Shown here: positions 2,119 to 47,271 of the stretch, in pieces
Numbering within the stretch: the stretch's first letter is position 1
Layout: every line of letters begins with the position of its first letter
Source of the DNA: Candidatus Daviesbacteria bacterium
GTDB taxonomy: Bacteria; Patescibacteriota; Microgenomatia; Daviesbacterales; UBA10151
Direction: 5' to 3'
Length of the DNA stretch: 64,000 bases
NCBI GenBank assembly: GCA_028715175.1
Contig: JAQUSJ010000001.1
Coordinates: 71,760-135,759 of the forward strand
Notes under the pieces: model-generated
Seen by the model: the letters and a program-made list of their open reading frames with translations, nothing else
Database searches by the model: none
Told to the model about the DNA's origin: nothing
Position numbers and translations under genes: made by a program

Positions 2119-4998
2119 TTGCGCGTGGACGAAAAAGATAAATCTATCAATAGAAAAACTAGCATTTCGCTTTCGCGAAATAGCCCCGTGGCCTTAATTG
2201 TGGGCGCGGGAAGCTTTTTGGGATCTAGCTTATCAGATAAGCTGTTGGATAAAGGAATACAGGTTGTCGGGTTGGATGATTTAGAAAATGGCGAAAAGCG
2301 CAATTTAAGAAAGGCGGTTGAGAATAGAAATTTTCACCTGGTAATAGAATCTCCTGATAAGGTTAATCTGGATTTACCGCGACTCGATTATTTATTTATT
2401 ATCCCTTCAGACAAATGGAACCTTCAAAAGGTTTTAGAGCTATTTAAGGAAACTAAATGTAGATGCTTGCTGGTTTCGTCAATCCTGCTTTATGAAAAAG
2501 AACACGAAGATCAAGAAACGAAATTATTAAAGGAGCTGGAAACAAAAATTGCAAAGCATGCCAGCGAATATAAACTAAACGCAAGAATTTTAAGACTGGG
2601 TCCTGTTTATGGTCCAAGGATGAATTTTAAAACCAGGGATCCTTTGATAAAGTTAATTCAACAGAGTTTAACAGGGGAGTTACAAAAACAGGTTTCACTG
2701 GAATTTTCCTCAAGGGCGCTTTTTATTTCCGATGCAGTTGATTTGGCAGTCAAGACTATTTTTTCCGGCGCCACTTCACAAAAAATCTTTGACGGAGTAC
2801 TGCCCACTCCGATCAAGATTTCGGAAGCAAAACAAGTGCTGCTGGACCCCGTTTGGCATGAAAGTCGCGGGTTTAGCCTTTCTGAGCTTCCGCCCTGGCC
2901 AACGCCTAATTTGGATAAAACTATTAAACTTTTAAACTGGAACCCCCGAGCGAAACTGGTGACAAGCTTAAAAGAGACCTTAAAGTTTTTTAAGGATAAC
3001 GAGATTCAAGTACCAAAATTGGAAGATGGAGGATTGAAACTTGAAGATGAAAGAGAAGAGGATAAATGGCGGGAAGAAAAACAGGAGGATTTGACGGCGT
3101 TCAAACAAACAACCGGGACATCCGGTGAAAAATCAAAAAAGGGAATACGTCTATTTAAATATCTATTTCCTTTATCAAAAATATACTTATTTTTAGTGAT
3201 CGCTCTGGTGACATATGCGATTTTGTGGCCCGGTTTAATTTTCGGGTGGGGTATTTTTACTTTCAGCAGTCAATTAAATGAGGGCTTTAAGAATTTGCAA
3301 AAAGGGGATTTTGAAAAAAGTCTTATGAATGTTCATATAGCCAACAGCCGGGTAAAGGCGGCAAAATCAATATTCGACAGTCTGGAACCGGTCAAAAAAA
3401 CAGGCTGGTTTGATAGCGGGTTTGCGACGGGTGAAAATTTATTTGATTTATCATTTCTGTCAGCTGATGCAGCTAAAAATACAATCTTAGGGGTCCAATC
3501 GCTTTTGCAAAGTTTAAAGGCGGTAACAGGCGAAAAGACAGAGTCTCCTTCGGAATATTTTGATTCTGCGCAAATCGCGCTAAACTTGGCAGCGGAGGAT
3601 CTTGCAAAAGCAAATGCGCTTTTGAAAGAAAAAAACTTCAGGCAACAACTGCCAAAGATTTTTTCCCCGCGAATCGAAAATATGGCAAGGGAAATTTCAC
3701 TTTATACAAACTTAGTAGGTAAGGCTCAGGCAATGAGCATCCTTCTTCCGAAGTTGACAGGGTTGGATGGCAGTAAAGCTTATTTAATACTGCTGCAAAA
3801 TAATATGGAGCTTCGCCCGGGCGGGGGATTCATCGGGTCTTTCGCCAAAGTTTCCTTTGAGGGAGGCAAGCTAAAAAATTTAGATGTTAATGATATCTAC
3901 GCAATAGACGGACTTTTGAGTATTCATGTTGAACCGCCAAAAGAAATCAAGGAAGATTTGGGTCAAAAAGACTGGTTTTTGCGAGACTGCAACTGGGAAC
4001 CGGATTTTCCTACCAGCGCCCGGCAAGCCGAGTGGTTTTATACCAAAGAAACAGGGGAGAGGGTTGAGGGTGTGGTGGCCTTGGATGTTTCGGCAATTGA
4101 GGGATTATTAGATATTGTCGGACCGCTGGATTTACCGGATTACAACGAAAAAATTACAGCCGATAACCTGTTTGAAAGAGCGATATCTCATTCGGAACTC
4201 AGTTTTTTCCCTGGATCACAGGCCAAAAAAAGCTTTCTAACGGCCCTAGCAAATCAACTGTTTAATAAAATATTCTTTTTACCTCAAAACAACTGGCCCG
4301 GGATTATCTCGGCACTGGGTAAAGGTTTGGACGAAAAACATATCAGTATTTATTTAAACGATACAAAGCTGTTTTCGTATTTGGCAGCGCAGCGCTGGAT
4401 ACATGATCTACCGCGACAATCAACCCGGGAAAATGATTTTTTGAGCGTAGTTGAAGCAAATTTGGGGGCAAATAAAGCCAATTATTATCTTGATAAAAAC
4501 TACAAGCTGGAAACCGTTGTCGGCAAAGATGGGGAAATTCAACACCGGTTGCGTATAAATTATATTAACAGGAGTCCTTCGGATGCTTTCCCGGGTGGAA
4601 AATATAAAAACAGGATGCGTATTTATCTGCCGTTTGGCAGCAAGCTAACAAGGGCTTTATGGGGCGAAGGGGATATTACCAAAGATGTAACTGGTTTTGT
4701 AGATTACGGCAGGTCAGGCTATTCTATGCTTTTGGAGCTTTTGCCTAAAGAACAAAAGACTCTTGTGTTGGACTACTCGGTGCCTGTGAAATTAGAGTTT
4801 CAGGATGGGAAAACAAATTACAGGTTGGATATTATTAAACAGGCAGGCACATTGAAAGATCCATTGCAGTGGACCATCACTTATCCGATTAACTATCAAC
4901 TAGTGTCATCCCAAGTGAGTAAAATCGGCCCACAGGAACAAATCATTCAAACAGATCTATCCAAAGATCGAAGTTTTGAGGTAGAATTTAAAAAATGA
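2119..4998 (+). CDS. Fusion protein: N-terminal NAD-dependent epimerase/dehydratase-like Rossmann domain plus C-terminal DUF4012 domain
   Basis: 'LIVGAGSFLGSSL' is a glycine-rich Rossmann motif. Mid-protein TM segment. The motif 'LRPGGGFIGSFAKVSFEGGKL' is characteristic of DUF4012. TTG start. Confidence 0.6.
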   Translation: MRVDEKDKSINRKTSISLSRNSPVALIVGAGSFLGSSLSDKLLDKGIQVVGLDDLENGEKRNLRKAVENRNFHLVIESPDKVNLDLPRLDYLFIIPSDKWNLQKVLELFKETKCRCLLVSSILLYEKEHEDQETKLLKELETKIAKHASEYKLNARILRLGPVYGPRMNFKTRDPLIKLIQQSLTGELQKQVSLEFSSRALFISDAVDLAVKTIFSGATSQKIFDGVLPTPIKISEAKQVLLDPVWHESRGFSLSELPPWPTPNLDKTIKLLNWNPRAKLVTSLKETLKFFKDNEIQVPKLEDGGLKLEDEREEDKWREEKQEDLTAFKQTTGTSGEKSKKGIRLFKYLFPLSKIYLFLVIALVTYAILWPGLIFGWGIFTFSSQLNEGFKNLQKGDFEKSLMNVHIANSRVKAAKSIFDSLEPVKKTGWFDSGFATGENLFDLSFLSADAAKNTILGVQSLLQSLKAVTGEKTESPSEYFDSAQIALNLAAEDLAKANALLKEKNFRQQLPKIFSPRIENMAREISLYTNLVGKAQAMSILLPKLTGLDGSKAYLILLQNNMELRPGGGFIGSFAKVSFEGGKLKNLDVNDIYAIDGLLSIHVEPPKEIKEDLGQKDWFLRDCNWEPDFPTSARQAEWFYTKETGERVEGVVALDVSAIEGLLDIVGPLDLPDYNEKITADNLFERAISHSELSFFPGSQAKKSFLTALANQLFNKIFFLPQNNWPGIISALGKGLDEKHISIYLNDTKLFSYLAAQRWIHDLPRQSTRENDFLSVVEANLGANKANYYLDKNYKLETVVGKDGEIQHRLRINYINRSPSDAFPGGKYKNRMRIYLPFGSKLTRALWGEGDITKDVTGFVDYGRSGYSMLLELLPKEQKTLVLDYSVPVKLEFQDGKTNYRLDIIKQAGTLKDPLQWTITYPINYQLVSSQVSKIGPQEQIIQTDLSKDRSFEVEFKK

Positions 4999-5255
4999 AT
5001 AATATTCCTACTGAAACTTTGGGGTTAATTGCAGGAGGGTTTGTGGTTTTTGCCTCATTGCCTCAGATTTTAAAAATTATTAAAACTAAAAGAACAACCG
5101 ATATTTCGCTTCCCATGTATATTGCTTTAAATATAGGCACGTTTCTGTGGTTAGTGTATGGTTTTTTGACACAACAGATGGCATTAATCATTACAAATGT
5201 TATCTTTCAAATTTTTAACCTGACAATTCTATTTCTTAAGATTAAACACGGATAA
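4995..5255 (+). CDS. SemiSWEET / PQ-loop sugar transporter family protein
   Basis: 86 aa with three TM helices and the 'SLPQILKIIKTK' PQ-loop motif. ATGA overlap with the upstream gene. Confidence 0.6.
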   Translation: MNNIPTETLGLIAGGFVVFASLPQILKIIKTKRTTDISLPMYIALNIGTFLWLVYGFLTQQMALIITNVIFQIFNLTILFLKIKHG

Positions 5256-5304
5256 TCAAGCGACCCTTGCCGGGCAAGCTCAAATATGGTAAATTACCAA
5301 GATT

Positions 5305-6057
5305 ATGGATAGATTAAGTTTGAAAGCCGAAGAAAGAAAAATTTTAGGCAAAAAAGTTAAAAAACTACGTCAAGACGGCCAACTCCCGGGTCATGTCTTT
5401 GGCAAGGGAGTGGAAAGCGAATCAGTTTGCGTTGATGGAAAAACATTCTTAAAAACTTTCAAAGAAGCAGGGGAAACCGGTTTAATTGATTTGAAGATTG
5501 GGGCTGAGAAGGTCAGGCCGGTAATGGTGCGGGGAGTGCAATATGATCCTGTTTCAGGTGAGCCCATACATATTGATTTTTATCAAGTCAATTTAAGCGA
5601 AAAAGTTAAGGTCCCGGTGCCCTTAGTTTTAATTGGGGAACAGCCGGAATCGGTTAAATTAGGAGAGACCATTGTTCTGCAAACCTTAAACGAGATTGAG
5701 GTGGAAGCTTTACCAACAGATCTGGTGGAGAAAATTGAGGTAGATATTTCTTCTTTGCAAAATATTGATGATGCCATAACTGTTGGGCAGCTGCAATTTG
5801 ATAAAGATAAGTTAACAATTCAGGTTCCGGGAGAAGAGATTGTGGTAAAACTGGCTCCTGCTGTGACAGCAGAGATGGAGAAACTCTTGGAAGAGCAAGC
5901 TGCGGAAGCTGCGGCTGTGGCTGCTGAAACAGGAGCAGAAGAAACTGAAGCAGGAGCTGTGCCTGCGGAAGGCGAAGTTCCGGTTGAAGGAGAAGTAGCT
6001 GAACAAAAAACTGAAGCTGGAGAGCAGGAATCAACCGAAGAATCTTCAGCAGAATAA
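5305..6057 (+). CDS. rplY: 50S ribosomal protein L25 / general stress protein Ctc, with a long acidic C-terminal tail
   Basis: 'KAEERKILGKKVKKLRQDGQLPGHVFGKG' and 'IHIDFYQV' are typical of bL25/Ctc. The E/A-rich tail is low complexity. Confidence 0.8.
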   Translation: MDRLSLKAEERKILGKKVKKLRQDGQLPGHVFGKGVESESVCVDGKTFLKTFKEAGETGLIDLKIGAEKVRPVMVRGVQYDPVSGEPIHIDFYQVNLSEKVKVPVPLVLIGEQPESVKLGETIVLQTLNEIEVEALPTDLVEKIEVDISSLQNIDDAITVGQLQFDKDKLTIQVPGEEIVVKLAPAVTAEMEKLLEEQAAEAAAVAAETGAEETEAGAVPAEGEVPVEGEVAEQKTEAGEQESTEESSAE

Positions 6058-6070
6058 TCTACACACTTGT

Positions 6071-6508
6071 ATGCATCACGTAGAGCAAGGAAATCCATTT
6101 TATATCTTTCATTGTCCTCGCGCGGCGTTCACTCTAGCAGATATTGGTGGAACTCCATTTGGCGATGAATCAGAGAGGTCAAGCGTTTTCTCGGCTTTAA
6201 TCCAACCTGGAGTTGTAGTTATCGCCACGATAGATACGAATAATGATGTTGAGCAGCTTGCCCCAGATACATATGTCCGGTGTATAAGCACAGGCTACTA
6301 TTTATTAGGCTGTTGGCATCGCAGATTGGATGGTAATGGTTCTTATCTTTTCTATCCAGATGTTACTGAGTTTAGACCTGAGATGATATTAACTGGTTCT
6401 GATATGGTAATGTTTACCAGAAGACATCAAAAATTTAATGATAAAAGTATACCTTATCATAGAATATATCAATTATATTGTGTTTTTGATGCGGCTAATC
6501 TGCGTTAA
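6071..6508 (+). CDS. Hypothetical protein
   Basis: 145-aa ORF with no recognisable motif and no ribosome-binding site. It is convergent with the four-helix-bundle gene. Confidence 0.25.
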   Translation: MHHVEQGNPFYIFHCPRAAFTLADIGGTPFGDESERSSVFSALIQPGVVVIATIDTNNDVEQLAPDTYVRCISTGYYLLGCWHRRLDGNGSYLFYPDVTEFRPEMILTGSDMVMFTRRHQKFNDKSIPYHRIYQLYCVFDAANLR

Positions 6509-6527
6509 TTTTGCGGGAATTGGATCC

Positions 6528-6562
6528 AAAAAGTAACAAGTAACAGGTTTTTAAGTAACAAG
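6528..6562. repeat. Heptamer array (GTAACAA-like units); inverted partner of 6826-6860
   Basis: 'agtaacaagtaacaggtttttaagtaacaagtt' is read directly. Its reverse complement recurs at 6826-6860, so the pair flanks the four-helix-bundle gene. Confidence 0.6.
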
Positions 6563-6841
6563 TTATTTTTGAGAGAGAAAAAGCTTCCAGATGATACGAC
6601 CGGTTTCTTCACGAAGCAACATTATTTCATTATACCGATCTTGTCGTATAAATTTCCTTTTAAAAGCAAAATCCAATAAGTATTCTGTTTCTGCTAAAGA
6701 ACCTAAAGCAATAGATAAGAAACGATGGAATTCCTTCCTATTGTTTCTAGCATGGCCTTCGACTATATTCGTAGGTACAGAAAGAGCAGCTCTTTGTAAC
6801 TGTGACACCAGTCCAAATAATTCCTTATTATTACTTGTCAC
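6563..6841 (-). CDS. Four-helix-bundle protein (23S rRNA intervening-sequence protein family, PF05635-like; Avd-like fold)
   Basis: 'VPTNIVEGHARNNRKEFHRFLSIALGSLAETEYLLDFA' is the signature of this family. Confidence 0.75.
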   Translation of the reverse strand: MTSNNKELFGLVSQLQRAALSVPTNIVEGHARNNRKEFHRFLSIALGSLAETEYLLDFAFKRKFIRQDRYNEIMLLREETGRIIWKLFLSQK

Positions 6842-6860
6842 TTTTGTACTTGTTACTCAG
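6826..6860. repeat. Heptamer array (TTGTTAC-like units); inverted partner of 6528-6562
   Basis: 'ttattacttgtcacttttgtacttgttactcag'. Confidence 0.55.
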
Positions 6861-9006
6861 TGGCTTTTGGCCACGATGTTACCATAATAGACTTGCCTTG
6901 ATGAGGCAATCTCTGCCAGAGCTCTTCTGTGATAAAGGGCATAAATGGATGTAAAAGCTCTAAACAAGTCCTGAAAACATATTCCAAAACAGGTTGAGCT
7001 TCGGCTCGTCGGTCTTTGGTGGATTCAATATACTTGTCTGCAAACTCATGCCAGATGAATTCATAAAGGGTATCTGCTGCATCATGAAACCGGTAAGAAT
7101 TGATAGCTTTTGAGGTGACTTCTATAGTTTTGGATAATTTTTCCAGGATATCCTCATCGTCCGGATTTATATTGTCATTCTGGGGAGCGTTAGCGACTCT
7201 AGAATCTGATTCTGGACAAGCCAGAATGACAGAGGGGTTTAGATGTTTTGCGTCATCCGGAGCAAAGTCAACGATAAATCTGCCGATATTCCAAAGTTTA
7301 TTGGTAAAGTTTCTCATGGCTTGCAGTTTAGGGTGCGAGAGGGATTGATCATGGCCAAAAGCAGTGCCATATACTAAAGCTAATCTGGCAGCATCTGCCC
7401 CGTATTGATCGGCAATATCCATAGGTGAAACCACATTATTTTTGGATTTGCTCATTTTTTTACCCAACGGATCAAGGACCATACCATGCAAAACAATATC
7501 CTCAAATGGAATTTTGCCTGTTGCATAAATTCCCATCATGACCATCCTGGCCACCCAGAAAAATAAAATATCACGGCCGGTTTCCATGATTGTAGTGGGA
7601 TAAAATTTTTCAAAATCCCCTGGGCGTGTGGTTTGTAAAGTAGCGAAGGGCCACTGACCGGATGAAAACCAGGTATCAAAAACATCTGGGTCTCTTTCCA
7701 ATAATTTACTGTTACAGTTAGGACATTTTGGCGGAGTTTCCCCTTCAGTGACTATCCATTGGTCGCAACCGTTGCAAAACCAGGCCGGGATTTGTATGCC
7801 CCAGACAATTTGGCGGGAGATATTCCAGTCTTTGATATTTTTTAACCAGTTAAAGTAAGTCTTTTCAAAATTCTTGGGGTAGATTTTAATTTCACCTTTT
7901 TTAATAACCTCGATGGCCGCTTTAGCCAGCTCTGCCGTTTTAATAAACCATTGCTCCGAGGGCAGTGGTTCTATTTCAGTGCCGCATTTATAACAAACAC
8001 CGACCCGGTTTTTATAATTTTCATCTATTTTTTCAATTAAGTTCTTTTCCAGCATTTCTTTGGCAATGGCTGCTCGAGCCTCTTTTACAGTCATGCCGGA
8101 AAATTTGCCGGTTTTCTCATTTAACCTGCCGTCATAGCCAATCACTTGCCGGATTTCTAAATTATGCCGTTGTCCTATTTCAAAATCCAACATAGAATGA
8201 GCAGGGGTGACTTTGATAACTCCGGTTCCAAATTCCGGATCAACTGCGCTGTCAGCAATAACTTTGATTTTGGCGGGTCCCAGGACTGTTTCTATATCAA
8301 TTATTTTGCCAATGTATTTTTGGTAGCGGGAATCATCAGGGTGTACTGCCACGGCAGTATCACCGAATTTGGTTTCCAGCCTGGTGGTAGCCAGTGTCAG
8401 TGGTCCGTATTTAATGTAGTAAAGTGGGCTAATTCGGTCTTCGTATAGAACTTCCAGGTCAGAAAAGCTGGTGCCGTGTTTGGTGCAGAAGTTGACAATC
8501 CGGTTCCCCCGATAAACCAAACCGTCGTCAAACATTTTTTTAAAAGTCTTGTAAACAATTTTGATAATGTCCGGATCAAGGGTAAATTTCTCTCTTGACC
8601 AATCCAGGGAAAAGCCTAATCTACGCAGTTGTCCCTCCATTTCGCCTTTATTGTTTTGGACAAAATCCCAAATCATTTGGTAAAGCGTTTCTCGGTCAAA
8701 ATCAAAACGGGATTTGCCCTTTTTTTCCAGCTCTTTTTCAAAAACCACTTGAGTTTCAAATCCGGCATGGTCTGAACCAGGTAACCAGAGAGCTGAATCA
8801 CCCAACATGCGGTGAAATCTTATTAAAATATCCTCTACCACATACATGGCATGGCCAAAATGCAAGGGAGCATTGGCATTGGGAGGGGGAAGGATGATAG
8901 TGTAAGGTCTGCCTTTAGGGTGTATTTCAGGTTTAAAAAACCCCAGACCTTCCCAAAATTTATACCATTTAGATTCTACTTTTGTTTGGTCATAAGTTTT
9001 ATCCAT
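6853..9006 (-). CDS. valS: Valine--tRNA ligase (class I aaRS, compact form without a long C-terminal coiled coil)
   Basis: HIGH-type motif 'PPPNANAPLHFGHA', 'KMSKSKNNVV', an editing-domain-sized insertion and the anticodon-binding region. Confidence 0.7.
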   Translation of the reverse strand: MDKTYDQTKVESKWYKFWEGLGFFKPEIHPKGRPYTIILPPPNANAPLHFGHAMYVVEDILIRFHRMLGDSALWLPGSDHAGFETQVVFEKELEKKGKSRFDFDRETLYQMIWDFVQNNKGEMEGQLRRLGFSLDWSREKFTLDPDIIKIVYKTFKKMFDDGLVYRGNRIVNFCTKHGTSFSDLEVLYEDRISPLYYIKYGPLTLATTRLETKFGDTAVAVHPDDSRYQKYIGKIIDIETVLGPAKIKVIADSAVDPEFGTGVIKVTPAHSMLDFEIGQRHNLEIRQVIGYDGRLNEKTGKFSGMTVKEARAAIAKEMLEKNLIEKIDENYKNRVGVCYKCGTEIEPLPSEQWFIKTAELAKAAIEVIKKGEIKIYPKNFEKTYFNWLKNIKDWNISRQIVWGIQIPAWFCNGCDQWIVTEGETPPKCPNCNSKLLERDPDVFDTWFSSGQWPFATLQTTRPGDFEKFYPTTIMETGRDILFFWVARMVMMGIYATGKIPFEDIVLHGMVLDPLGKKMSKSKNNVVSPMDIADQYGADAARLALVYGTAFGHDQSLSHPKLQAMRNFTNKLWNIGRFIVDFAPDDAKHLNPSVILACPESDSRVANAPQNDNINPDDEDILEKLSKTIEVTSKAINSYRFHDAADTLYEFIWHEFADKYIESTKDRRAEAQPVLEYVFRTCLELLHPFMPFITEELWQRLPHQGKSIMVTSWPKATE

Positions 9007-9027
9007 GGAGTAAGTATAGAGGTAAGC

Positions 9028-9381
9028 CTAGTTTTGGTCAATTAGAGAGTAGGGATAAGGGAGTTTTTCAAGTTTCACCCATTCCCATTGGTCCATAAGA
9101 TGAGCAGGACTAGAGATAAGCGGGTCAACTAGAGTATCAGGAAAAAAGCAGAAGCGGCGTCGGGCAAGGTAATTACAGGAAACAGGGATTTCATCCAAAT
9201 CAAAAGTTTCACGACGCCCATTTAGTAAACGAACTACCATGAAACGGTTACCATCATTGTCGGTCAATATCCAATAGCGACTACAATAAATGTGATTTCG
9301 GCCTAAAATGTCGGTCGAGATATGATCTTCGCTCCCTACTAAATGTTCTTGAGATTCTTCTCCGATGTTTTCTATCCCCAT
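9028..9381 (-). CDS. Hypothetical protein (orphan ORF in a compositionally atypical segment)
   Basis: 117-aa ORF; local GC is higher than the flanks; no motif recognised. Confidence 0.2.
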   Translation of the reverse strand: MGIENIGEESQEHLVGSEDHISTDILGRNHIYCSRYWILTDNDGNRFMVVRLLNGRRETFDLDEIPVSCNYLARRRFCFFPDTLVDPLISSPAHLMDQWEWVKLEKLPYPYSLIDQN

Positions 9382-12949: not shown

Positions 12950-13111
12950 TTTAATATTTAATCAAGAGCGATGGGGAGAGTTTTGGCTCAATGATCCATC
13001 CAGCAACCGATCCAAAAGACACGGTGCTAAACCCAAGCCCGTAAGGGAAGGATTAGTCCTGAGTGCAATTGAAGGAAAACACATTTAACCTCTCTTTACG
13101 GGAGGTTTTTT
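12950..13111 (+). ncRNA. Candidate small structured RNA or leader (about 160 nt), bounded by a promoter and a strong intrinsic terminator
   Basis: There is no ORF. The segment ends in the hairpin CCTCTC-TTTAC-GGGAGG followed by TTTTTT at 13089-13111. Its class was not recognised. Confidence 0.3.
13089..13111 (+). terminator. Intrinsic terminator (6-bp stem including one G-U pair, then T6)
   Basis: Read directly. Confidence 0.6.
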
Positions 13112-21802: not shown

Positions 21803-22306
21803 ATGGCAAATATAGCAGTAGAAACTAGAATAGAATTTGGAATTGATCCAACATCGGTTGCGCCTGGTTGTGTAACAACAGCCCCAGTTGAAGTCTGGAG
21901 GTATCATACGCCCTTGGCACGTTCAACAGATGGTGGGGTTTATTATTTACACAGATTAGCCGAAAACCTCCACGGTAGATATATTGGAGGATTCGAGGCA
22001 TATGAGCGACTGGTAAAAAGAGGTATAAAAAGAGATAGCAAGGATGGACTTGACGAGTATGTTCGAGAAGTGGGCAGGGCTTTTGTGAAATGGCAAGGGA
22101 TTTCAGACGACAGTATAGGATTGACAGATAGTTCAAAAGCTGCTTGCGTTCTGGGATTGGCAGCCGAAGTAGTTGATCCAGATGGAACTCCAACAATCAG
22201 GTATCTTAATCGATCAATTGGTGTTTGGAGCAGATTAAAACCGGAAGATACTGCGTTAGAATATAACAAGATAACACATAATTGGGAACCAGTAGCGATT
22301 GAGTAA
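21803..22306 (+). CDS. Hypothetical protein inserted between groES and groEL
   Basis: 167-aa ORF starting 4 nt after the groES stop and ending 11 nt before the groEL start. GC-richer composition. No motif recognised. Confidence 0.45.
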
Positions 22307-24001: not shown

Positions 24002-24997
24002 TTACTGCATGGTTGGGGGTCGATGCATGTTATCTATACCTGAAGCAAAGTTCTGAAAGTTTTGGCTAGAGGATCTATCAAATAACCTATCATTTCTTAT
24101 TGCCCTTGCTTCCTCTGGATCTTTACCGTCGTAAATGCTAAATGGTAAATATTCTACTTCTGGATAAGGAAATTGGCCTTCTGCGATGACCCGTAGCTGT
24201 TCTGGACTAACTGAGTTAACAGAAATATATCTACCTCCCCAAACTAAATCTTTCCATTTTGCAACATTTCCATCTAAATAATAGCCCTTTTCGTACCTGA
24301 AAACTCTGTCGCCTAATCCTTGAGGAAAAAGTCTTATTCGGACAATTCCGGGAATGGTGTGTTCTTGCTGCGACAAATCTGTAGCTAATAATGAAGCTTG
24401 TCTTTGTAATTCTGGTGTAGCGAACTCTGCTTGGACAGGATAAGGTTCTTCAAAAGTTATTGATCCGAACTGTACTTTTGTCTCTCTGAAACTGACAGTG
24501 GGGGTAAACGGAGTTACAGCCCAAGAGACATCTGCAAAGATTTCTGGGCGGAACATTGTTTTAAGAATTAGATTATACGCATCTGCAAATTGTTCTAGAG
24601 CTTTGAACAAACCTGGTCTTAGATAAGCTCTTTCCCAAGCTGCAGCATTAAGTAAATCTACTACCTCATGGTCTTCAGGGGGTTCAACTATAAGAGCAGC
24701 TGCTGGCTCAACGAAAAAATCACGTATACTTACAAATCTTTGGAATTCTATTCCGGGTTGAAGAAGGGTAAATTGACCAACTACTATGATACTGGGATTC
24801 TTTTTTAGTTCAGTCTCTATTCTGTCACCTAGAAATCTTCGTGGTAAACTTTCAAAGCTAAAACTTGTTGGATTTTGTGGGTTATCTTCTTTTCCTGTCA
24901 TAAATGATTTAGATAGCAGGGATATTATAGTGTTTTCAAGATAAAAGCAACTAATTTTGCTGTCAAAGGGTAGTTTTGATTGAATTTGATGGGCCAA
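24002..24997 (-). CDS. Hypothetical protein (331 aa), mildly GC-atypical
   Basis: Long ORF without recognisable motifs. Confidence 0.35.
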   Translation of the reverse strand: MAHQIQSKLPFDSKISCFYLENTIISLLSKSFMTGKEDNPQNPTSFSFESLPRRFLGDRIETELKKNPSIIVVGQFTLLQPGIEFQRFVSIRDFFVEPAAALIVEPPEDHEVVDLLNAAAWERAYLRPGLFKALEQFADAYNLILKTMFRPEIFADVSWAVTPFTPTVSFRETKVQFGSITFEEPYPVQAEFATPELQRQASLLATDLSQQEHTIPGIVRIRLFPQGLGDRVFRYEKGYYLDGNVAKWKDLVWGGRYISVNSVSPEQLRVIAEGQFPYPEVEYLPFSIYDGKDPEEARAIRNDRLFDRSSSQNFQNFASGIDNMHRPPTMQ

Positions 24998-25028
24998 TAG
25001 AAAGGCAAGTTGTGCTAAACTTTACTTA

Positions 25029-25622
25029 ATGGTTAAGTTTCATTACCGCGAGTCTCCTACCGAAAAGCAAAAAAAGGCTTTCAGAAAATATTTATCTGAA
25101 GATGAAGAATTGGTTTTGGTAACCAGTCTATCTAAAGCTTATATAAGATCTAAGTTTATACTTAACTTACTTTTCCCGGGAATGCTATTTTTGGGGCTTG
25201 GTTTAGGGGTAGGATGGTTTTTTAATATTGGCAGAATTTGGGCCCTTGTTTTGGGATTAGGATTTATGTTTTTATCAGCCATACTTAAAACGATGCATGT
25301 TTATCATGCCAACAGATATTTGTTAACCACCAGAAGAGTCATTATTAAAAAAGGGTTATTCTCTGTTAAGCTGACTGCCGCACTTTTTGATAAAATTACC
25401 AATCTAGTGGTAGACCAATCGATTATTGACAGGTTGCTTTTACATCACGGTACCATTGTTGTAAATACAGCCGGAGTCAGCAAAGGAGAAATAATATTGA
25501 AATATGTGGATTCGCCTATGGAACTCAAAAATTTACTTGAAAGGTTAATTAACCGTGAAAGGGAACAATTTGGACTAAGGGGAGCTAGCTTAACAGAAGT
25601 GGAAGGAGAGATTATTACGTAG
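25029..25622 (+). CDS. Bacterial PH-domain (YdbS/YdbT-like) membrane protein
   Basis: Two TM helices followed by a bPH_2-like domain ('LLTTRRVIIKKGLFS'). Its last 26 codons lie in direct repeat A. Confidence 0.5.
   Translation: MVKFHYRESPTEKQKKAFRKYLSEDEELVLVTSLSKAYIRSKFILNLLFPGMLFLGLGLGVGWFFNIGRIWALVLGLGFMFLSAILKTMHVYHANRYLLTTRRVIIKKGLFSVKLTAALFDKITNLVVDQSIIDRLLLHHGTIVVNTAGVSKGEIILKYVDSPMELKNLLERLINREREQFGLRGASLTEVEGEIIT
25539..25616. repeat. Direct repeat A (the actual 3' end of the PH-domain gene)
   Basis: Aligned by eye with 30223-30300. Confidence 0.85.
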
Positions 25623-26472
25623 TATTAGTTTTATTTTTCTGTGCTGTAAGTATGTAATATCCCGCTTTTCCTTTTCTAAGTAACCTTTGTAAGCCAGCAA
25701 GCAGTGTTTCTATGTCTTGATGCGAACTTTCTGCATCTAAACTTTGTCCATTGGGTGAGGAATCATGATAATCTACTGGAGAGACAACATTTTCAGTTAT
25801 ATTTCTAGGATTTATACATGAAAAGCCATTTGCTAATAGAAGAGCAACTAATTCTTGTATATGAGTAATATTAGGAATATGCATGTGTGTTTTGAGCTCT
25901 GCTATGATGTCGACTTCTTCTTTTGTTAATGTATGTGGATGCATAAATATATCTGCTATTGTTATTATGCCTTTAGATTTCAAGATTCTACTTGATTCTT
26001 GTATTAAGCCTGTTTTGTCTTGAGAGTGAATAAAACTCTCACAAAAAATTATTCTATCGAAAGTTCCACTTCGAAAAGCAAGATGTTCATAGTCTTGGAT
26101 AGAGAATATAGGGCAAAACGAGTCATCTCGATCTTCATATTGACTTGCGAGATGGATATGATTTCTTGATATGTCTATCCCGTATACCCCTGCTTTTGGC
26201 TCAATGTGTTTAATTTCGAATGCTAAGGTCCCTACGCCACATCCTGCATCTAAGATGACTTGTCCAGATTTTATTTCGCTTAGTTCAATAATTCTCCGAG
26301 ACATTTGTAAAGCTGAAATGGAGTTATCTAAAGGTTCACCCCAGTCTTGTTGGTAGCCGATATGCATAGCATAAAGTCCTATTCTCTTTGGATCAGGTGA
26401 CCACTTTAAAAAAATAGGGGCTGTTTGTCTATAGAAAGTTTCTATCTCTTGACGCCTTTCATTATTAGCCAT
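25615..26472 (-). CDS. Class I SAM-dependent methyltransferase (candidate tailoring enzyme of the RiPP cluster)
   Basis: 'VILDAGCGVGTLA' motif I. Its stop overlaps the PH-domain gene stop by 8 nt. Confidence 0.7.
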   Translation of the reverse strand: MANNERRQEIETFYRQTAPIFLKWSPDPKRIGLYAMHIGYQQDWGEPLDNSISALQMSRRIIELSEIKSGQVILDAGCGVGTLAFEIKHIEPKAGVYGIDISRNHIHLASQYEDRDDSFCPIFSIQDYEHLAFRSGTFDRIIFCESFIHSQDKTGLIQESSRILKSKGIITIADIFMHPHTLTKEEVDIIAELKTHMHIPNITHIQELVALLLANGFSCINPRNITENVVSPVDYHDSSPNGQSLDAESSHQDIETLLAGLQRLLRKGKAGYYILTAQKNKTNTT

Positions 26473-26602
26473 AACTCAGACAGTATTTTATCACAGATAA
26501 TATTTACTATGGGCGATATTAATATCTTGTTTTGATAATCAGATTATGGTATAGACTTAGTAATGAATAGATTAATTCTTTTACGAAAGGAGGTGAAATA
26601 AT

Positions 26603-26788
26603 ATGAGTCATCATCCAGAACAATCAGAACAGTTGAGACGCAGTATGGCAGATGCAAAAGAATTTCGGGCTACTCAAGGCGTCAAAGGGACAAGAGCTTT
26701 TTTGTGTATGCCTCAACCTTGCGCACCGCCGCCACATCCACCGCCTTGTAAACCACCATGCTCTCCTTGCGTGGGACAGATTAAGTAG
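26603..26788 (+). CDS. RiPP precursor peptide (TOMM/LAP-like): leader plus a Cys/Pro-rich core 'FLCMPQPCAPPPHPPPCKPPCSPCVGQIK'
   Basis: 61 aa. Strong SD 'AAAGGAGGTGA' 7 nt upstream. It lies directly upstream of the YcaO gene. The C-terminal 28 residues carry six Cys. Confidence 0.65.
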   Translation: MSHHPEQSEQLRRSMADAKEFRATQGVKGTRAFLCMPQPCAPPPHPPPCKPPCSPCVGQIK

Positions 26789-26856
26789 TAAAAGGTTTTT
26801 GCAAGAAGGGGCTGAAACATATTTTGTATAATTAATTATCCTGCCGAGTGTAGAAT

Positions 26857-28161
26857 ATGAATATAAATGGTTTCTTTCAGAGGATAAGTAGGTTTGTATT
26901 GAATAATCCTAAAATTGTAAAGAGTTTCTACAAGACGCCGAATTATAATGATGAGCCTCAGCTGTATCAGTATTCTTCGCAATTTATAGATGGTAATTCG
27001 TTAAGAGTGTCAATGGATTCGATAGCTTCGGGAACATCATTTGACAAGAATAGCGCATTATTGAAACTATTGGGAGAAACAGTAGAAAGATATTCTCTTA
27101 GTATATACGATAATAGTAAATTAATTTATAGAAGTTTCCGTGAGCTAGTTTGTAAAAATAAAAATGCTTTAAATCCAACTGGACTAGCATTACTACCTCA
27201 ATTCTTCAAAGAGAACAAGAAAGAAGCCCTCTATGATATCAAATTTTACTGGGTTATAGGTAAGTCTTTAGTTACTAATAAGAATATATTGGTTCCTGCT
27301 CAACTTATTTTTGTTCCATATTCCCATTCTAAATCTGAGCCTATTCTTCAAACGCCGATATCAACAGGAGCTGCAGCAGGAGAGGCGATTTACGATGCGC
27401 TCTATAGAGGTATTTGTGAAGTTATAGAACGGGATTCTTTTATGATCCATTATTACAATAAAATAAGCTCTCCTAGAATTAATCCTTACTCTTTAAGAAG
27501 TAAGAAAATCTCAAAAATAATCAGAATATTTGAAAGGTATAATTTAGAATTATGTGTTAACGATATAACAACTGATATTGGTGTTCCTGCTGTTATAGCT
27601 ACTGTTATCGATAAAACTGGTCTGGGACCTGCTATTTGTGTTGGACTTAAGGCGGGATTTGATATGAACCAAAATGTGATTGGTGCTACTGAGGAGACTC
27701 TTATGGTTCGTTCATGGATTCGGGATGAATATATGTATTTGAAGCCTAAACATAGTTCTCCTAGGATAATTAGTACTATAGAAGAAAGAGCAAATTTCTG
27801 GTGTCCTACAAGTACAATTCATTATTTGGATTTCTGGTTAAGCACGAGAAATAACGGAGGTTCTTATAAATTATGCAAATTTAGGCGAAGTTCTTACAAA
27901 GAAAAGGTTATGGAATTGATAAGAATATTGAAATCGAAAGGGCTTGACATTATTTATATTGATATAACTGCTCCCGAAATACGTAAGTATAATGTAAAGG
28001 TGGTTAAAGTGATAATACCTCAGTTGCAGCCGGTACATTTAGATGAAAGATATCCATATCTTACTTTTCAAAGATTGTATAATGCGCCCGTAAATATGGG
28101 AATTTTAGGAAGACCTAAGACATTTGAAGAACTTAATAGTATTCCTCATCCATTTTTATGA
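26857..28161 (+). CDS. YcaO-domain cyclodehydratase
   Basis: 'SGTSFDKNSALLKLLGETVERYS' is the YcaO ATP-binding motif. 'STGAAAGEAIYDALYRGICEVIERDS' is the second conserved YcaO block. Confidence 0.8.
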   Translation: MNINGFFQRISRFVLNNPKIVKSFYKTPNYNDEPQLYQYSSQFIDGNSLRVSMDSIASGTSFDKNSALLKLLGETVERYSLSIYDNSKLIYRSFRELVCKNKNALNPTGLALLPQFFKENKKEALYDIKFYWVIGKSLVTNKNILVPAQLIFVPYSHSKSEPILQTPISTGAAAGEAIYDALYRGICEVIERDSFMIHYYNKISSPRINPYSLRSKKISKIIRIFERYNLELCVNDITTDIGVPAVIATVIDKTGLGPAICVGLKAGFDMNQNVIGATEETLMVRSWIRDEYMYLKPKHSSPRIISTIEERANFWCPTSTIHYLDFWLSTRNNGGSYKLCKFRRSSYKEKVMELIRILKSKGLDIIYIDITAPEIRKYNVKVVKVIIPQLQPVHLDERYPYLTFQRLYNAPVNMGILGRPKTFEELNSIPHPFL

Positions 28162-28940
28162 AAAAAGATTATAGAAAGAGATTATTGAGCATAATTGACG
28201 GAAAGGAGTATTTGTCGGATAAATTTAATCGAGCCACAAATAATAAAAACATTAGCGCTTGGGGTCGCAAAAAGAGCCCTGAGGCATGGATCAAGATTCA
28301 TTTTAAAACCTACCCACGCCTAAATAGAATAAAATTAGTAAAAGTTTTCCAAAATAGGAAGATATCTTTAGTAGATGTGCTAAAAAATAGGCGTTCGAGT
28401 AGGACTTTTTCAGGTAAACCTATTTCCATAAAAGATTTATCTTACTTATTATTATATTCAAGTGGTATTATCGATCATGGGTTTGCACCGGATAAGAGTA
28501 GAAGGGTATATCCCTCAGCTGGAGCACGCTATCCGTTAGAAGTATATCCACTCATTCTTAGCGATGGTGATGGAGTGAAAGCTGGTTTGTATCATTATAA
28601 TGTGAAAGAGCATATTTTAGAAGTTATCCTAAAGGAAGATTTAAAACACTGGTTGCTTGAGTCTACTGGTAATTTCAAACCAATAATTAAAGCAAGTGTG
28701 GTGTTTATTGTTACAGGAGTTCTTGATCGAACTAGAGTAAAATATGGAGATAGAGGGTATAGATACGTACTAATGGAAGCAGGGCATATGGCCCAAAATT
28801 TATTACTTCTTGCAACCGGTTTAGGAATGGCTAATTTGGCGATTGGAGGGTATACAGATTCTAAGGTTACAGAGTTGTTGAATTTGGAATTAGTGAAAGA
28901 GGTATCATTGTATATGATTGCTGTAGGTGGATATGTCTAA
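28158..28940 (+). CDS. SagB-type (McbC-like) FMN-dependent dehydrogenase
   Basis: 'RRSSRTF', 'PSAGARYPLEVYPLIL' and 'GLYHYN' are characteristic of SagB/nitroreductase-fold azoline dehydrogenases. ATGA overlap with the YcaO gene. Confidence 0.8.
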   Translation: MKKDYRKRLLSIIDGKEYLSDKFNRATNNKNISAWGRKKSPEAWIKIHFKTYPRLNRIKLVKVFQNRKISLVDVLKNRRSSRTFSGKPISIKDLSYLLLYSSGIIDHGFAPDKSRRVYPSAGARYPLEVYPLILSDGDGVKAGLYHYNVKEHILEVILKEDLKHWLLESTGNFKPIIKASVVFIVTGVLDRTRVKYGDRGYRYVLMEAGHMAQNLLLLATGLGMANLAIGGYTDSKVTELLNLELVKEVSLYMIAVGGYV

Positions 28941-30216
28941 ACATAGTTTAATTAGATTAGAAAATGGCTTGACGCTATTTTTACAGCGTATTCCGAGGGT
29001 GCGTTCTGTTTCTGTTTCCATCGGTGTTAGGGCAGGTTCTAGGTATGAGACGAAAGAAACGGCTGGATTGGCACATTTTCTGGAACATATGTTATTTGAG
29101 GGTACCAAACAATATCCAACAGCCAAAAAATTAGCAGAGCAAATAGAAAGAGTTGGTGGACACTCCGGTGCATATACCAATAGAGAATATGTAATTTATA
29201 ATGTTAAAGTTTTTGAAAAGTATCTAGAGATAGCTTTTAAGTATCTTTCTCAAATTATTTTTGATTCAAGTTTGGAATTGAGTAATATTGAGAAGGAGAA
29301 AAGTATTGTTCTGGAGGAGATAAAACGAGTAGCAGATAATCCTGAACAAGTAATTTGGGAAGAATGGATGAAATGGGTATGGGATACTGATCAGCCACTT
29401 GGTCGTTCGATTCTGGGAGACAAAGAAACAGTTCAAAAAATTACTAAATCAAAACTGCAGGCATACTTGCAAAATTTATATGTACCCCAAAATATGATAC
29501 TTACAGTGGTAGGAAATTTTTCATTGTTAGAGGTAGAAAAATATGTTCGAAAATACTTTGATGTAAAAATGACTGGGAAGATTCCAGTATTACAAAAATC
29601 AGAATTGCCCGAGCACAAAAGTAAAACTAAAGTCATGCAGTTAGATACACAGCAAGTTCAACTACTCTGTGGTTTTGTGACTGGTGTTTCGTATTTCCAC
29701 AAAGATCGATTCATAATGTGGTTACTGGCTGAACTCTTAAGTGGAGGAGTAAGTGCGAGGATATTTCAAAAGCTTATTTACGAACTGGGAATTGCTTATT
29801 CTGCCGGAACATATGATATGGAATTCAAGGATACGGGAATATTCTTTATTTATGGTGGATTTGCTAAAGAAAATATTGAGAAAGCCATAACGACTATTTT
29901 TGACGAACTAAGAGAACTTCAAATGAAAAGCGTCATTCCTGATGAATTGGCTAGCGCAAAAGAGAGAAGTATAGCCAGATTATATTTTTCTGCAGAAAAA
30001 CCAGATTATCTTGCTGGTTTACATGCGACACAATTTATTACAGAGGGGAAAATAATGACGATAGAGACACTATCAGAGGAAATAAATCAGGTAAGTTCAG
30101 CTGATGTTAAGAGAGTTGCGCAAAAATATTTTAATAATTCAGATGTATATATTATGTTGCGTGGTCCAGTAAGACAAGATCAAGTAAAAATAATTGATGA
30201 AATAATTGATAGGTAA
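28927..30216 (+). CDS. M16-family (pitrilysin-like) zinc peptidase; candidate leader peptidase
   Basis: Inverzincin motif 'HFLEHMLFEGT' (HxxEH). Overlaps the dehydrogenase gene by 14 nt. Confidence 0.8.
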   Translation: MDMSKHSLIRLENGLTLFLQRIPRVRSVSVSIGVRAGSRYETKETAGLAHFLEHMLFEGTKQYPTAKKLAEQIERVGGHSGAYTNREYVIYNVKVFEKYLEIAFKYLSQIIFDSSLELSNIEKEKSIVLEEIKRVADNPEQVIWEEWMKWVWDTDQPLGRSILGDKETVQKITKSKLQAYLQNLYVPQNMILTVVGNFSLLEVEKYVRKYFDVKMTGKIPVLQKSELPEHKSKTKVMQLDTQQVQLLCGFVTGVSYFHKDRFIMWLLAELLSGGVSARIFQKLIYELGIAYSAGTYDMEFKDTGIFFIYGGFAKENIEKAITTIFDELRELQMKSVIPDELASAKERSIARLYFSAEKPDYLAGLHATQFITEGKIMTIETLSEEINQVSSADVKRVAQKYFNNSDVYIMLRGPVRQDQVKIIDEIIDR

Positions 30217-30222
30217 TTTTTG

Positions 30223-30300
30223 GAAAGGTTAATTAATCGCGAAAGAGAACAATTTGGACTAAGGGGAGCTAGCTTAACAGAAGTGGAAGGAGAGATTATT
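30223..30300. repeat. Direct repeat B (a non-coding duplicate of the PH-domain gene 3' end, att-like)
   Basis: It starts 7 nt after the M16 peptidase stop. It would encode 'FLERLINREREQFGLRGASLTEVEGEIIS*'. Confidence 0.85.
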
Positions 30301-30332: not shown

Positions 30333-31046
30333 TTAGTCTTGCGCTATCGGGCGGGGCATATCCGGAATTTCCGGAAGTAGAGCCTGCGGATTAACATAAC
30401 TATCATTGCGGGTAATTTCCAGATGCGTATGAGGACCGGAAGTATGGCCTGTTAAGCCTACCTCTCCTAAAATATTTTCCGGAGCAACCTCGTCCTTAAC
30501 TTTAACGTAGATTTTTCCCATGTGAGCATACTTTGATTTAAATCCGTTCTCGTGAGTCACTACCACATAATTTCCCAAACCCCAAAAATCTCTTCCAACC
30601 TCAAAAACTTTACCATTGATGATCGGACGGACAGGCATACCCAATCCTGTGGCAATATCTATGCCCGGATGCCATGTTGAGAATCTGGTTGTTAGATAAC
30701 CAGGGTGCGGTAAGACTAGAGGTTTAGAAAATGATTCGGCGATGACTTCTTCTTTTTGTTCCTGCCCGGCCGCCTTGTATGAAGCTAAAGCCAGCGATTT
30801 TTTAACAGGAGGGATAGAAAGTGTTGGGTAGTATCCTGTCAGGGAAAAGAAAATAAAACCAATAATGGCAAGCTTTGTAAACCTCTTAAGGAACCTTAGC
30901 TTGATTTTAGATAATTTCCGAGTGAGGGCAACCCTTTCAGAAATTACCATAGACAGAAGGTTTATGTTTTGATATTTCAAAACAAATCCCATACTGGATA
31001 GTATGGGATGAATGCGAATAGTATCACTTTCGAGCTCAAATGTCAA
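30333..31046 (-). CDS. M23-family peptidoglycan metalloendopeptidase
   Basis: 'GIDIATGLGMPV' and 'GLTGHTSGPHTHLEI' (HxH) motifs. N-terminal TM. Confidence 0.8.
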   Translation of the reverse strand: MTFELESDTIRIHPILSSMGFVLKYQNINLLSMVISERVALTRKLSKIKLRFLKRFTKLAIIGFIFFSLTGYYPTLSIPPVKKSLALASYKAAGQEQKEEVIAESFSKPLVLPHPGYLTTRFSTWHPGIDIATGLGMPVRPIINGKVFEVGRDFWGLGNYVVVTHENGFKSKYAHMGKIYVKVKDEVAPENILGEVGLTGHTSGPHTHLEITRNDSYVNPQALLPEIPDMPRPIAQD

Positions 31047-47220: not shown

Positions 47221-47223
47221 TGT

Positions 47224-47265
47224 ATAGATCCTTCGACTCTCCGGCTTCCGCCGGATCGCTCAGGA
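47224..47265. repeat. Half palindromic element, identical over 42 bp to 60813-60854
   Basis: 'atagatccttcgactctccggcttccgccggatcgctcagga' is read at both loci. Confidence 0.85.
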
Positions 47266-47271
47266 CGCCTT

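Follow-up and report, generated by a model that had tools for sequence, protein, structure and literature searches.

A five-gene RiPP cassette of the LAP/TOMM type, apparently inserted at the 3' end of a bPH_2 gene in a Daviesbacteria genome

A 64,000-nt stretch of the genome of a Candidatus Daviesbacteria bacterium (assembly GCA_028715175.1, contig JAQUSJ010000001.1, positions 71,760 to 135,759 of the forward strand; hereafter the window, whose own numbering is used throughout) carries a block of five genes between the gene of a bacterial pleckstrin homology (PH) domain protein and a convergent gene of an M23 peptidase. We consider it reasonably probable that this block, at 25617-30222, is an intact, horizontally acquired cassette for a ribosomally synthesized peptide with post-translational modifications (RiPP) of the linear azole-containing peptide/thiazole-oxazole-modified microcin (LAP/TOMM) type, and that it entered by a single crossover, host homologous recombination being the likeliest route. 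To our knowledge, the genomes of bacteria of the Candidate Phyla Radiation (CPR) are very small, and hardly any mobile elements have been described from them; the gain of accessory functions by these bacteria is accordingly poorly understood. An earlier note on this DNA, made from the sequence alone, had singled out the locus. Its observation is confirmed by the analysis presented here, and its interpretation is partly supported.

The cassette is bounded by two direct repeats, copy A and copy B, which a repeat search located where the earlier note had placed them, at 25539-25616 and 30223-30300, respectively. The repeats are 78 nt long and 96% identical, with a start-to-start spacing of 4684 nt. 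They differ at three positions (15, 18, and 24 of the repeat; AAC/AAT, CGT/CGC, and AGG/AGA) rather than at the four first counted, and the identical stretch comprises their final 54 nt rather than 58. All three mismatches fall at third codon positions and are synonymous in the PH reading frame, as had been noticed. To the left of the repeats, weak similarity extends for ~10 nt more, with a 2-nt indel (AAATTTACTTG versus AATTTTTGG). The 54-nt identical stretch of the PH tail is the longest direct repeat in the whole 64 kb; the 54-mer has two exact matches in the window and none in 100 shuffled sequences. As the longest repeat present, found only twice, it rules out a reading of the 78-nt copies as dispersed repeats. 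Copy A forms the true C-terminus of the bPH_2 protein (...EGEIIT*), and copy B would encode the identical 26 residues followed by S*, so that our reading agrees with the earlier description of one copy as the end of the gene and the other as its remnant. The C-terminal ~34 amino acids are the most conserved portion of the PH protein. An exact-sequence look-up of this protein gave no record. A 100%-identical database entry and 977 homologues are assigned to Candidatus Daviesbacteria or Patescibacteria by the sources that list them, which bears out the CPR-like host suspected from the sequence; the source contig measures 743,708 bp.

An independently assembled Logan contig, L001 (run SRR22315506, 4690 nt), matches window positions 25587-30276 exactly. 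Both of its ends fall 30 nt (k-1) inside the 54-nt identical blocks, which is the break expected of a k=31 graph at a repeat. The contig was therefore rejected as a sign of a circular form of the cassette.

That the cassette is an insertion is supported by the sequence of the corresponding sites in relatives, which are empty. In contigs that encode the closest PH proteins, the gene order is groES-groEL-PH-M23(-)-PEGA/SH3-UbiA-GT4, and the PH and M23 genes abut or overlap. The PH proteins of these empty-site contigs are 97% (L002, from GCA_028712705.1, and L003), 93% (L004), and 88% (L005, from GCA_018816815.1) identical to that of the window; at the nucleotide level, L002 and L003 are 90-93% identical to the window. 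L002 is collinear with window positions 25026-25626 and resumes exactly at 30223, and its two alignments overlap by 88 nt in L002, this overlap being the duplicated segment. A metagenome scan with the PH alignment yielded 80 more loci, in 72 of which both the PH and the M23 genes were visible; the gap between the two was 70 nt or less, i.e., the site was empty, in 68 of the 72. The empty site that the earlier note had proposed to look for, a PH gene directly followed by an M23 gene, was thus found both in L002-L005 and in the great majority of metagenome loci.

The composition of the cassette is foreign, and the most deviant in the 64-kb window. Its GC content is 0.348, compared to 0.388 in the rest of the window, and lies below that of all 251 same-size segments outside the cassette (mean 0.387, sd 0.020). 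Its tetranucleotide distance is 0.288, compared to 0.149 +/- 0.020 for other segments, the largest of which reaches 0.205. The cassette had been described as richer in AT than its flanks, and both measures agree with this.

The two junctions carry the ends of two different PH alleles. At empty sites, the PH gene ends with GAG ATT ATT TC(T/C) TA(G/A), encoding ...EIIS* (S-type), and is followed by the 3' end of the M23 gene. On its right, copy B is followed by TCC TGA and the M23 3' region, which is the S-type arrangement. After copy A, by contrast, come ACG TAG TA and the 3' end of the methyltransferase gene of the cassette. Among 120 listed PH proteins, 100 end with ...EIIS and six with ...EIIT*. 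In one empty-site locus, L172, the native PH gene ends with GAGATTATTACGTAGTA, which is identical to the copy A junction of the window; the continuation of copy A, ACGTAGTA, is the native T-type PH end in this locus. The inserted DNA therefore brought a complete T-type PH 3' end including its stop codon, and the last codon and the stop of the window PH gene (ACG TAG) come from the inserted DNA. The same locus led us to reject a non-Ser PH C-terminus as a marker of occupied sites, because the site in L172 (EIIT) is empty. Judging from the sequence, the recipient S-type tail has been displaced to the far side of the cassette: the left part of copy B is cassette-borne, and its right side continues into the recipient S-type end. 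The three mismatches between the copies, all of them synonymous, fit two functional alleles better than the decay of a fresh in situ duplicate.

Homology to sister cassettes runs from the methyltransferase stop region to the stop codon of the M16 peptidase gene plus TAATTTT; the cassette proper begins and ends almost at stop codons. The copy A junction shares 10 identical nt, ATTACGTAGT, with the M16 stop region in the sister cassette L006, which had suggested that the cassette was opened inside the M16 terminus. This reading was dropped, since the M16 gene of another relative, L169, ends with ...GR* TAATTTT like that of the window, and since the copy A continuation is the native PH end in L172.

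These junctions fit a single crossover between a circle, in which the M16 stop, TTTTT, a T-type tail, and the methyltransferase end would follow one another, and the tail of the recipient gene; such an event would reproduce both of them. The cassette would have arrived on DNA, most simply a circle, that carried approximately the last 90 nt of a PH gene (...EIIT*) belonging to a different Daviesbacteria lineage. One Campbell-type crossover inside the 54-nt stretch identical to the recipient PH 3' end would rebuild an intact PH gene with a donor-derived last codon and stop (copy A), and the recipient tail (...EIIS*) would end up beyond the cassette as the remnant seen in copy B. The earlier note had proposed site-specific integration with an att-like duplication. 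The att-like logic stands, in that the gene appears rebuilt by cassette sequence and the recipient tail displaced, while the integrase mechanism is unproven.

The PH-M23 junction is occupied in four of the 72 metagenome loci, which represent three distinct cargoes (L098/L099, L121, and L142/L143). In L098, the cargo (3641-9202) comprises a 141-aa toxin-like open reading frame (ORF) with a PIN-like N-terminal motif recognized by eye, a 127-aa antitoxin-like ORF, a decayed sister of the window cassette, and a 490-aa ORF judged by eye to be a putative ATPase. The decayed cassette has lost the precursor gene and the N-terminal parts of the methyltransferase and YcaO, leaving a methyltransferase fragment directly against the last 204 amino acids of YcaO; its SagB and M16 genes are intact and 71-82% identical to those of the window. 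In L121, the PH gene is followed (1778-2644) by an antitoxin-like ORF of 86 aa and a PIN-like ORF of 129 aa, both assigned by eye. This pair is flanked by a 33-nt duplication of the PH tail, 31/33 identical, with weaker similarity extending to ~50 nt; both copies encode LTEVEGEIIS*. Another PIN-like pair occupies the site in L142/L143. When each PH locus was searched with its own tail, a duplicate was found in L121 only, and no recombinase-like ORF is present in the L098/L099, L121, or L142/L143 cargoes.

The five-gene unit itself was found in four or more genomic contexts, one of them being the PH-M23 junction, where it sits in the window and in L098. In GCA_018816815.1 (L006, L007, and L009; YcaO 73% identical), its neighbors are a further methyltransferase gene on one side and genes for a Trp repressor and SNase on the other, and the PH-M23 site of this genome (L005) is empty although the unit sits elsewhere in it; the sister cassette in L006 has neither flanking repeats of 25 nt or longer nor a PH-tail fragment. 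In L169 the unit adjoins a B12-binding radical SAM gene, and in L008 and L170 a gene whose product has an N-terminus judged by eye to be HMG-CoA-reductase-like. The repeated insertion of RiPP and toxin-antitoxin cargo at the PH tail looks new, as do the integrase-less mobility at this site and the documentation of a cassette-like insertion with both junctions resolved.

The other side of the PH gene also varies. In the window, a 331-aa ORF (24002-24997, minus strand), which matches no Pfam or NCBIfam family, lies between groEL and the PH gene and is missing from L002-L004. Across Daviesbacteria loci, the groEL-to-PH spacer ranges from an overlap (-25 nt) to 3005 nt and contains PIN genes in L005; it is a second variable spot next to the PH-M23 site. 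Further upstream, a 167-aa ORF with no Pfam family (21803-22306) separates groES from groEL; the closest relative, L002, has these two genes side by side. The start context of this ORF, TATGGCAAATAT, resembles that of groEL, TATGGCTAAGAT.

Several points weigh against a single crossover brought about by host recombination. A perfect 54-nt identity between alleles that differ on both sides of it is somewhat unexpected (L002 differs at 4 of the 54 positions), and later gene conversion may be needed to explain it. Neither an excised circle nor a donor genome was seen, and the model does not explain the origin of the first tail-carrying molecule. L098 and L142 have no detectable tail duplication. 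The L098 cassette has diverged from that of the window (71-82% amino acid identity) about as much as the host genes have (64-88%), so that part of the pattern could reflect old vertical inheritance followed by loss. The product chemistry, described below, is a prediction from family knowledge. The main alternative is a trans-acting recombinase. Family models, applied to ~20 of the ~68 ORFs of the window, revealed no integrase or transposase, either inside the cassette or outside it. The five genes of the cassette have all been assigned other functions, in keeping with the earlier remark that it lacks an integrase.

A recombinase of this kind could have left a structure like the cis-mobilizable elements (CIMEs) of streptococci, in which case the tail copies would be genuine attL and attR sites. 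The corresponding tyrosine or serine integrase would be encoded on another element or in the chromosome, would have integrated the cassette, and could excise it in trans or in cis. CIMEs carry 1.2-13 kb of cargo at the 3' ends of fda, rpsI, rpmG, or tRNA-Lys genes, keep attL and attR, have no recombination genes, and coexist with integrase-bearing elements at the same site (PMC7563491, PMC6323972). They are the closest described concept to the window cassette, which likewise is a small cargo with direct repeats of a conserved gene 3' end and without integrase or transfer genes, at a site reused by several cargoes. The rebuilt target, the repeats, and an integrase-less cargo of 1-13 kb match the definition published in the two papers; three different cargoes at one site and a target that is the most conserved part of the PH gene also speak for such an element. 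The streptococcal elements, however, share their site with integrative conjugative or mobilizable elements, whereas no cognate integrase-bearing element was found in ~76 PH-M23 loci or on viral contigs, a set that covers these loci rather than whole genomes and includes only four occupied metagenome loci (three distinct cargoes), none of which has one. The host here is a CPR bacterium. With 78 nt, of which 54 are identical, the window repeats are long, and they represent two target-gene alleles, a pattern equally compatible with plain homologous recombination. In addition, no recombinase is present among the window ORFs checked, the length of the duplication varies with the cargo (78 nt versus 33 nt), and the core palindrome AGCTAGCT is not conserved in relatives. 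A CIME-like element thus appears to us an unlikely explanation, but one that survives better than those considered below.

Since no integrase-bearing element occurs in ~76 loci, unlike at CIME sites, RecA-type host homologous recombination of tail-carrying DNA after uptake is favored, and we consider it the most likely mechanism; homologous recombination explains the data at least as well as integrase-driven integration does. CPR bacteria carry competence genes. Other known routes of insertion found no support. There is no tRNA or tmRNA target in the window. An integron attC site was rejected, because both strands of both tail copies fold into hairpins no better than shuffled sequence does (z -0.5 to +1.0) and no integrase was found in the ORFs checked. 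A phage or viral carrier was rejected as well, because a degenerate tail pattern and the YcaO family are both absent from the viral contig collection.

The polarity of the event could also be reversed, the cassette being an old resident of the Daviesbacteria PH-M23 junction and the empty sites being precise deletions between the repeats. Recombination between direct repeats would indeed give back a clean empty site, and the decayed cassette at the same site in L098 has diverged to the extent that its flanking host genes have. This explanation would, however, need many independent precise losses, as the four closest contigs and 68 of the 72 metagenome loci are empty. It is also at odds with the composition of the cassette, the strongest outlier in the 64 kb, with the T-type and S-type ends and synonymous-only differences of the tail copies, which indicate that DNA of two lineages was joined, and with the presence of the five-gene unit at other loci in other genomes. 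We regard it as improbable.

Two further explanations have very little probability in our estimate. In the first, a repair or replicative process (staggered breaks, template switching) copied ~80 nt of the recipient PH tail in situ, and the copy then drifted. The absence of a recombinase, the different lengths of the duplications in different cargoes, and the short sequence similarity seen also at the groES-groEL insertion junction would suit such a process, but non-coding drift should not stay at synonymous third positions, as all three differences do, and the process does not yield a copy A with the end of another allele (ACG TAG TA, as in L172) beside a copy B with TCC TGA. In the second, the assembly took a wrong path through the 54-nt repeat, and there is really an empty chromosome and a separate 4.68-kb molecule, or the cassette of a co-occurring strain. 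In de Bruijn graphs, any k up to 55 leaves an exact repeat of this length ambiguous, the ends of the Logan contig fall precisely at the repeat, and the composition of the cassette is unlike that of the contig; yet the methyltransferase frame crosses the junction and overlaps the PH stop convergently by 8 nt, independently assembled Joint Genome Institute contigs have the same architecture (the tail duplication in L121 and the cassette at the site in L098/L099), and the cassette lacks a replication gene that could maintain it as an episome.

Five intact genes lie between the repeats (Table 1), and they are those the earlier note had listed. We turn to them in order of their proposed roles, having preferred the single-crossover insertion as the account of how they arrived. 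The locus is supported as a LAP/TOMM-type RiPP cassette, the identity first proposed for it, by family models, by catalytic motifs, and by a conserved precursor family.

Table 1. Positions of the cassette genes, the flanking repeats, and the two host genes in the window.
Feature	Coordinates	Strand	Family match or remark
bPH_2 (bacterial PH-domain) membrane protein, 197 aa, host gene	25029..25622	+	Pfam PF03703, E = 6e-12; last 26 codons = copy A
Repeat copy A, attL-like; recipient-type at left, passing into donor-type ACG TAG at right	25539..25616	+	
Class I SAM-dependent methyltransferase, 285 aa, candidate tailoring enzyme	25615..26472	-	Pfam Methyltransf_31/11/25
Precursor peptide, Cys/Pro-rich, 61 aa	26603..26788	+	ribosome-binding site upstream
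YcaO cyclodehydratase, single-domain, SagD/TOMM type, 434 aa	26857..28161	+	TIGR03604; PF02624
SagB/McbC-type FMN dehydrogenase, 260 aa	28158..28940	+	TIGR03605
M16B zinc peptidase, 427 aa from ATG at 28933; presumed leader peptidase	28933..30216	+	Peptidase_M16, Peptidase_M16_C
Repeat copy B, attR-like; displaced non-coding remnant of PH tail	30223..30300	+	
M23 peptidase, native convergent neighbor of PH gene	30333..31046	-	PF01551

The precursor ORF is preceded by a strong canonical ribosome-binding site, AGGAGGTG. The leader of the predicted peptide carries a MADAKEF motif, and its core, FLCMPQPCAPPPHPPPCKPPCSPCVGQIK, contains five Cys residues, all within the last 27 residues. The YcaO protein scores 247.8 bits with TIGR03604 (cut-off 219.25) and matches positions 2-324 of the 325 of PF02624 with E = 2e-52; its C-terminus is PHPFL, and its nearest solved relatives are the YcaO domains of MusD, TruD, and LynD. 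An AlphaFold2 model built with 27 homologues (pLDDT 88, pTM 0.91) aligns to LynD with TM scores of 0.76-0.79 over approximately the whole 434-residue chain. The protein is therefore predicted to be a lone YcaO domain, without a fused E1-like or RiPP recognition element (RRE) module. The SagB protein, whose start overlaps the YcaO stop by 4 nt, scores 134.7 bits with TIGR03605 (cut-off 78.4), and its Lys195-Tyr196 align with Lys201-Tyr202, the catalytic pair of McbC (PMC6395948). The start of the M16 gene in turn overlaps the SagB stop; the protein matches PDB entry 3hdi with E = 2e-55 and has HFLEH (the HxxEH motif) at residue 48. The family searches suggested earlier thus place the YcaO, SagB, and M16 proteins as expected. 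No E1-like/Ocin-ThiF partner, exporter, or integrase is present among the cassette ORFs, and the 4.6 kb leave no room for another gene; the lack of such a partner and of an ABC exporter had been correctly noted. There is no immunity gene in the cassette either. A scan of the cassette for sigma-70 promoters and terminators gave no excess over shuffled sequence and was uninformative.

The methyltransferase gene converges on the PH stop, and its product is five amino acids longer at the C-terminus than in the closest relatives (L098 and L169). The enzyme is confined to the closest cassettes, where it occurs as two types that are ~36% identical to each other. In a PDB sequence search, its nearest solved structures were 3bus, phosphoethanolamine N-methyltransferases, and MitM. 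PznL-family structures are present in the PDB. The analogy to PznL drawn in the earlier note found no support, nor did an assignment as an N-terminal dimethyltransferase of the PznL/BamL type, as none of the 10 methyltransferases matched at E <= 1e-5 is related to plantazolicin.

To see how widespread such genes are, loci were collected by a scan with the YcaO alignment, one genome per species, which yielded 80 loci; their six-frame ORFs were searched with the window proteins. YcaO and SagB genes are adjacent in nearly all of the 80, and the YcaO-SagB-M16 order is found in ~29 of them. A homologous peptide of 50-75 aa with a Cys-rich C-terminus is encoded directly upstream of YcaO in 17 or more other loci. 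The precursor cores are Pro-rich in the closest relatives. In an alignment of 18 precursor sequences, Asp17 and Phe21 of the D-A-K-E-F motif are invariant, and this leader motif may be what the partner-less YcaO recognizes. On the enzyme side, YcaO residues 30-39 (window 26944-26973) form an N-terminal motif, YNDEPxLYxY, in which Tyr30, Asn31, Asp32, and Pro34 are invariant in 27 sequences; the motif is a candidate leader-binding element of this partner-less family.

The titles of the 80 loci are mainly those of CPR bacteria (Roizman-, Levy-, Gottesman-, Shapiro-, Woese-, and Giovannonibacteria, and Saccharibacteria); DPANN, Bathyarchaeota, and haloarchaeal records are also present, as are many generic "uncultured Gammaproteobacteria" titles. 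L010, L012-L014, L019, and others are CPR-type operon contigs from binchicken assemblies titled "uncultured Gammaproteobacteria bacterium", which looks like placeholder or wrong taxonomy. In L081 and L083-L088, the SagB query and the YcaO query hit one and the same ORF of ~730 aa (e.g., 6687-8888 in L081), which suggests fused dehydrogenase-cyclodehydratase proteins in Saccharibacteria and Paceibacterota genomes. One Saccharibacteria-labelled contig, L029, has two tandem YcaO-SagB pairs (2833-8672).

The cluster type itself is already known in CPR bacteria. LAP clusters with YcaO, nitroreductase, peptidase, and adjacent precursor genes were described in a Microgenomates genome by Sharrar et al. 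(2020, mBio; PMC7298704), who also counted 110 of them in another 93 CPR genomes, among them 31 Microgenomates, most with the nitroreductase gene beside YcaO. Together with the 80 loci found here, these clusters contradict the claim of the earlier note that a complete RiPP pathway is unusual in CPR bacteria. The window cassette shares gene set, gene order, and kind of host with the published clusters (PMC7298704). It differs from them in having an additional, divergent methyltransferase, in its Pro/Cys-rich core with a DAKEF leader motif, which we did not find mentioned in that text, and in being a separate inserted block that is flanked by a duplicated target tail and whose site is empty in relatives. 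A family of Cys-rich precursors with a DAKEF leader, Pro-rich in the closest relatives and served by a single-domain YcaO, looks new.

From what is known of these families, the following pathway would be expected. The 61-aa precursor would be recognized via its conserved D-A-K-E-F leader motif, and the single-domain, partner-less YcaO, using ATP, would cyclize up to five X-Cys amides to thiazolines, which the translationally coupled SagB would oxidize to thiazoles. The M16 peptidase would take off the leader, and the methyltransferase would add a methyl group at an undefined position. The outcome would be a penta-thiazole peptide rich in proline, cut by the M16 peptidase and bearing the added methyl group.

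Among characterized systems, microcin B17 (McbBCD) and streptolysin S (SagBCD) resemble the window cassette in their SagD-family YcaO, their SagB/McbC dehydrogenase with the Lys-Tyr pair, and a Cys-rich core. Unlike them, the cassette has no E1-like/Ocin-ThiF partner (McbB/SagC), either as a gene or as a fused domain, its peptidase is of the M16 rather than of the TldD/E or CAAX type, and it has no exporter or immunity gene. Azoline-forming bottromycin YcaOs act without a partner protein (PMC8442711), and, going by this description, by gene content, and by the single-domain model, the window YcaO would likewise be expected to act without an E1-like or RRE partner; the bottromycin cluster, in contrast to the cassette, has two YcaOs and different tailoring enzymes. 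Plantazolicin shares with the cassette an S-adenosylmethionine (SAM) methyltransferase alongside a YcaO and dehydrogenase pair. The window methyltransferase differs in its nearest relatives, given above, and is missing from most members of the window YcaO family.

Two features elsewhere in the window may be mentioned. A SAM riboswitch (RF00162, 49.7 bits, above the gathering score) is found at 12956-13058 on the plus strand, upstream of a small ORF; it adjoins a convergent gene which, from its N-terminal sequence only, was taken to encode S-adenosylhomocysteine hydrolase. A GC-rich 48-nt repeat occurs at 47223-47270 and 60812-60859 (46/48 identical) and contains the hairpin CTCCGGC-TTCC-GCCGGA. 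One copy is intergenic, and the other lies in frame in a NAD-kinase-like ORF (60476-61231, minus strand), where it encodes ...SHPERSGGSRRVEGSI...; the repeat recalls palindromic elements that insert in frame into genes.

In this locus, a whole antibiotic-type pathway would have arrived as a 4.6-kb unit, with both junctions readable and with relatives in which the site is empty or filled. The locus suggests that the end of a conserved gene serves as a reusable site of insertion, which also collects toxin-antitoxin modules. If the mechanism is only homologous recombination, the locus is still a useful example of gene flow among CPR bacteria, though not a new kind of element. The precursor, the partner-less YcaO, SagB, M16, and methyltransferase form a minimal cloneable set that allows a direct test of substrate recognition by a YcaO without an E1-like or RRE partner, by means of the invariant Asp and Phe of the DAKEF motif, and the predicted Pro/Cys-rich poly-thiazole peptide may have biological activity. 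More tentatively, and with less confidence than we place in the single-crossover insertion itself, we suggest that Daviesbacteria, and perhaps other CPR bacteria, exchange compact accessory modules such as RiPP clusters and toxin-antitoxin pairs as integrase-less, tail-carrying cassettes, each bearing a copied 3' end of a highly conserved gene and inserting by recombination inside that end, with the bPH_2 tail as a dedicated acquisition site and, as the cargo seen here, an uncharacterized RiPP subfamily defined by a partner-less YcaO, a DAKEF leader, and a poly-thiazole, Pro-rich product. In its function, the bPH_2 tail may then resemble an integron platform or a tRNA attachment site, acting through host recombination or a trans-acting enzyme.

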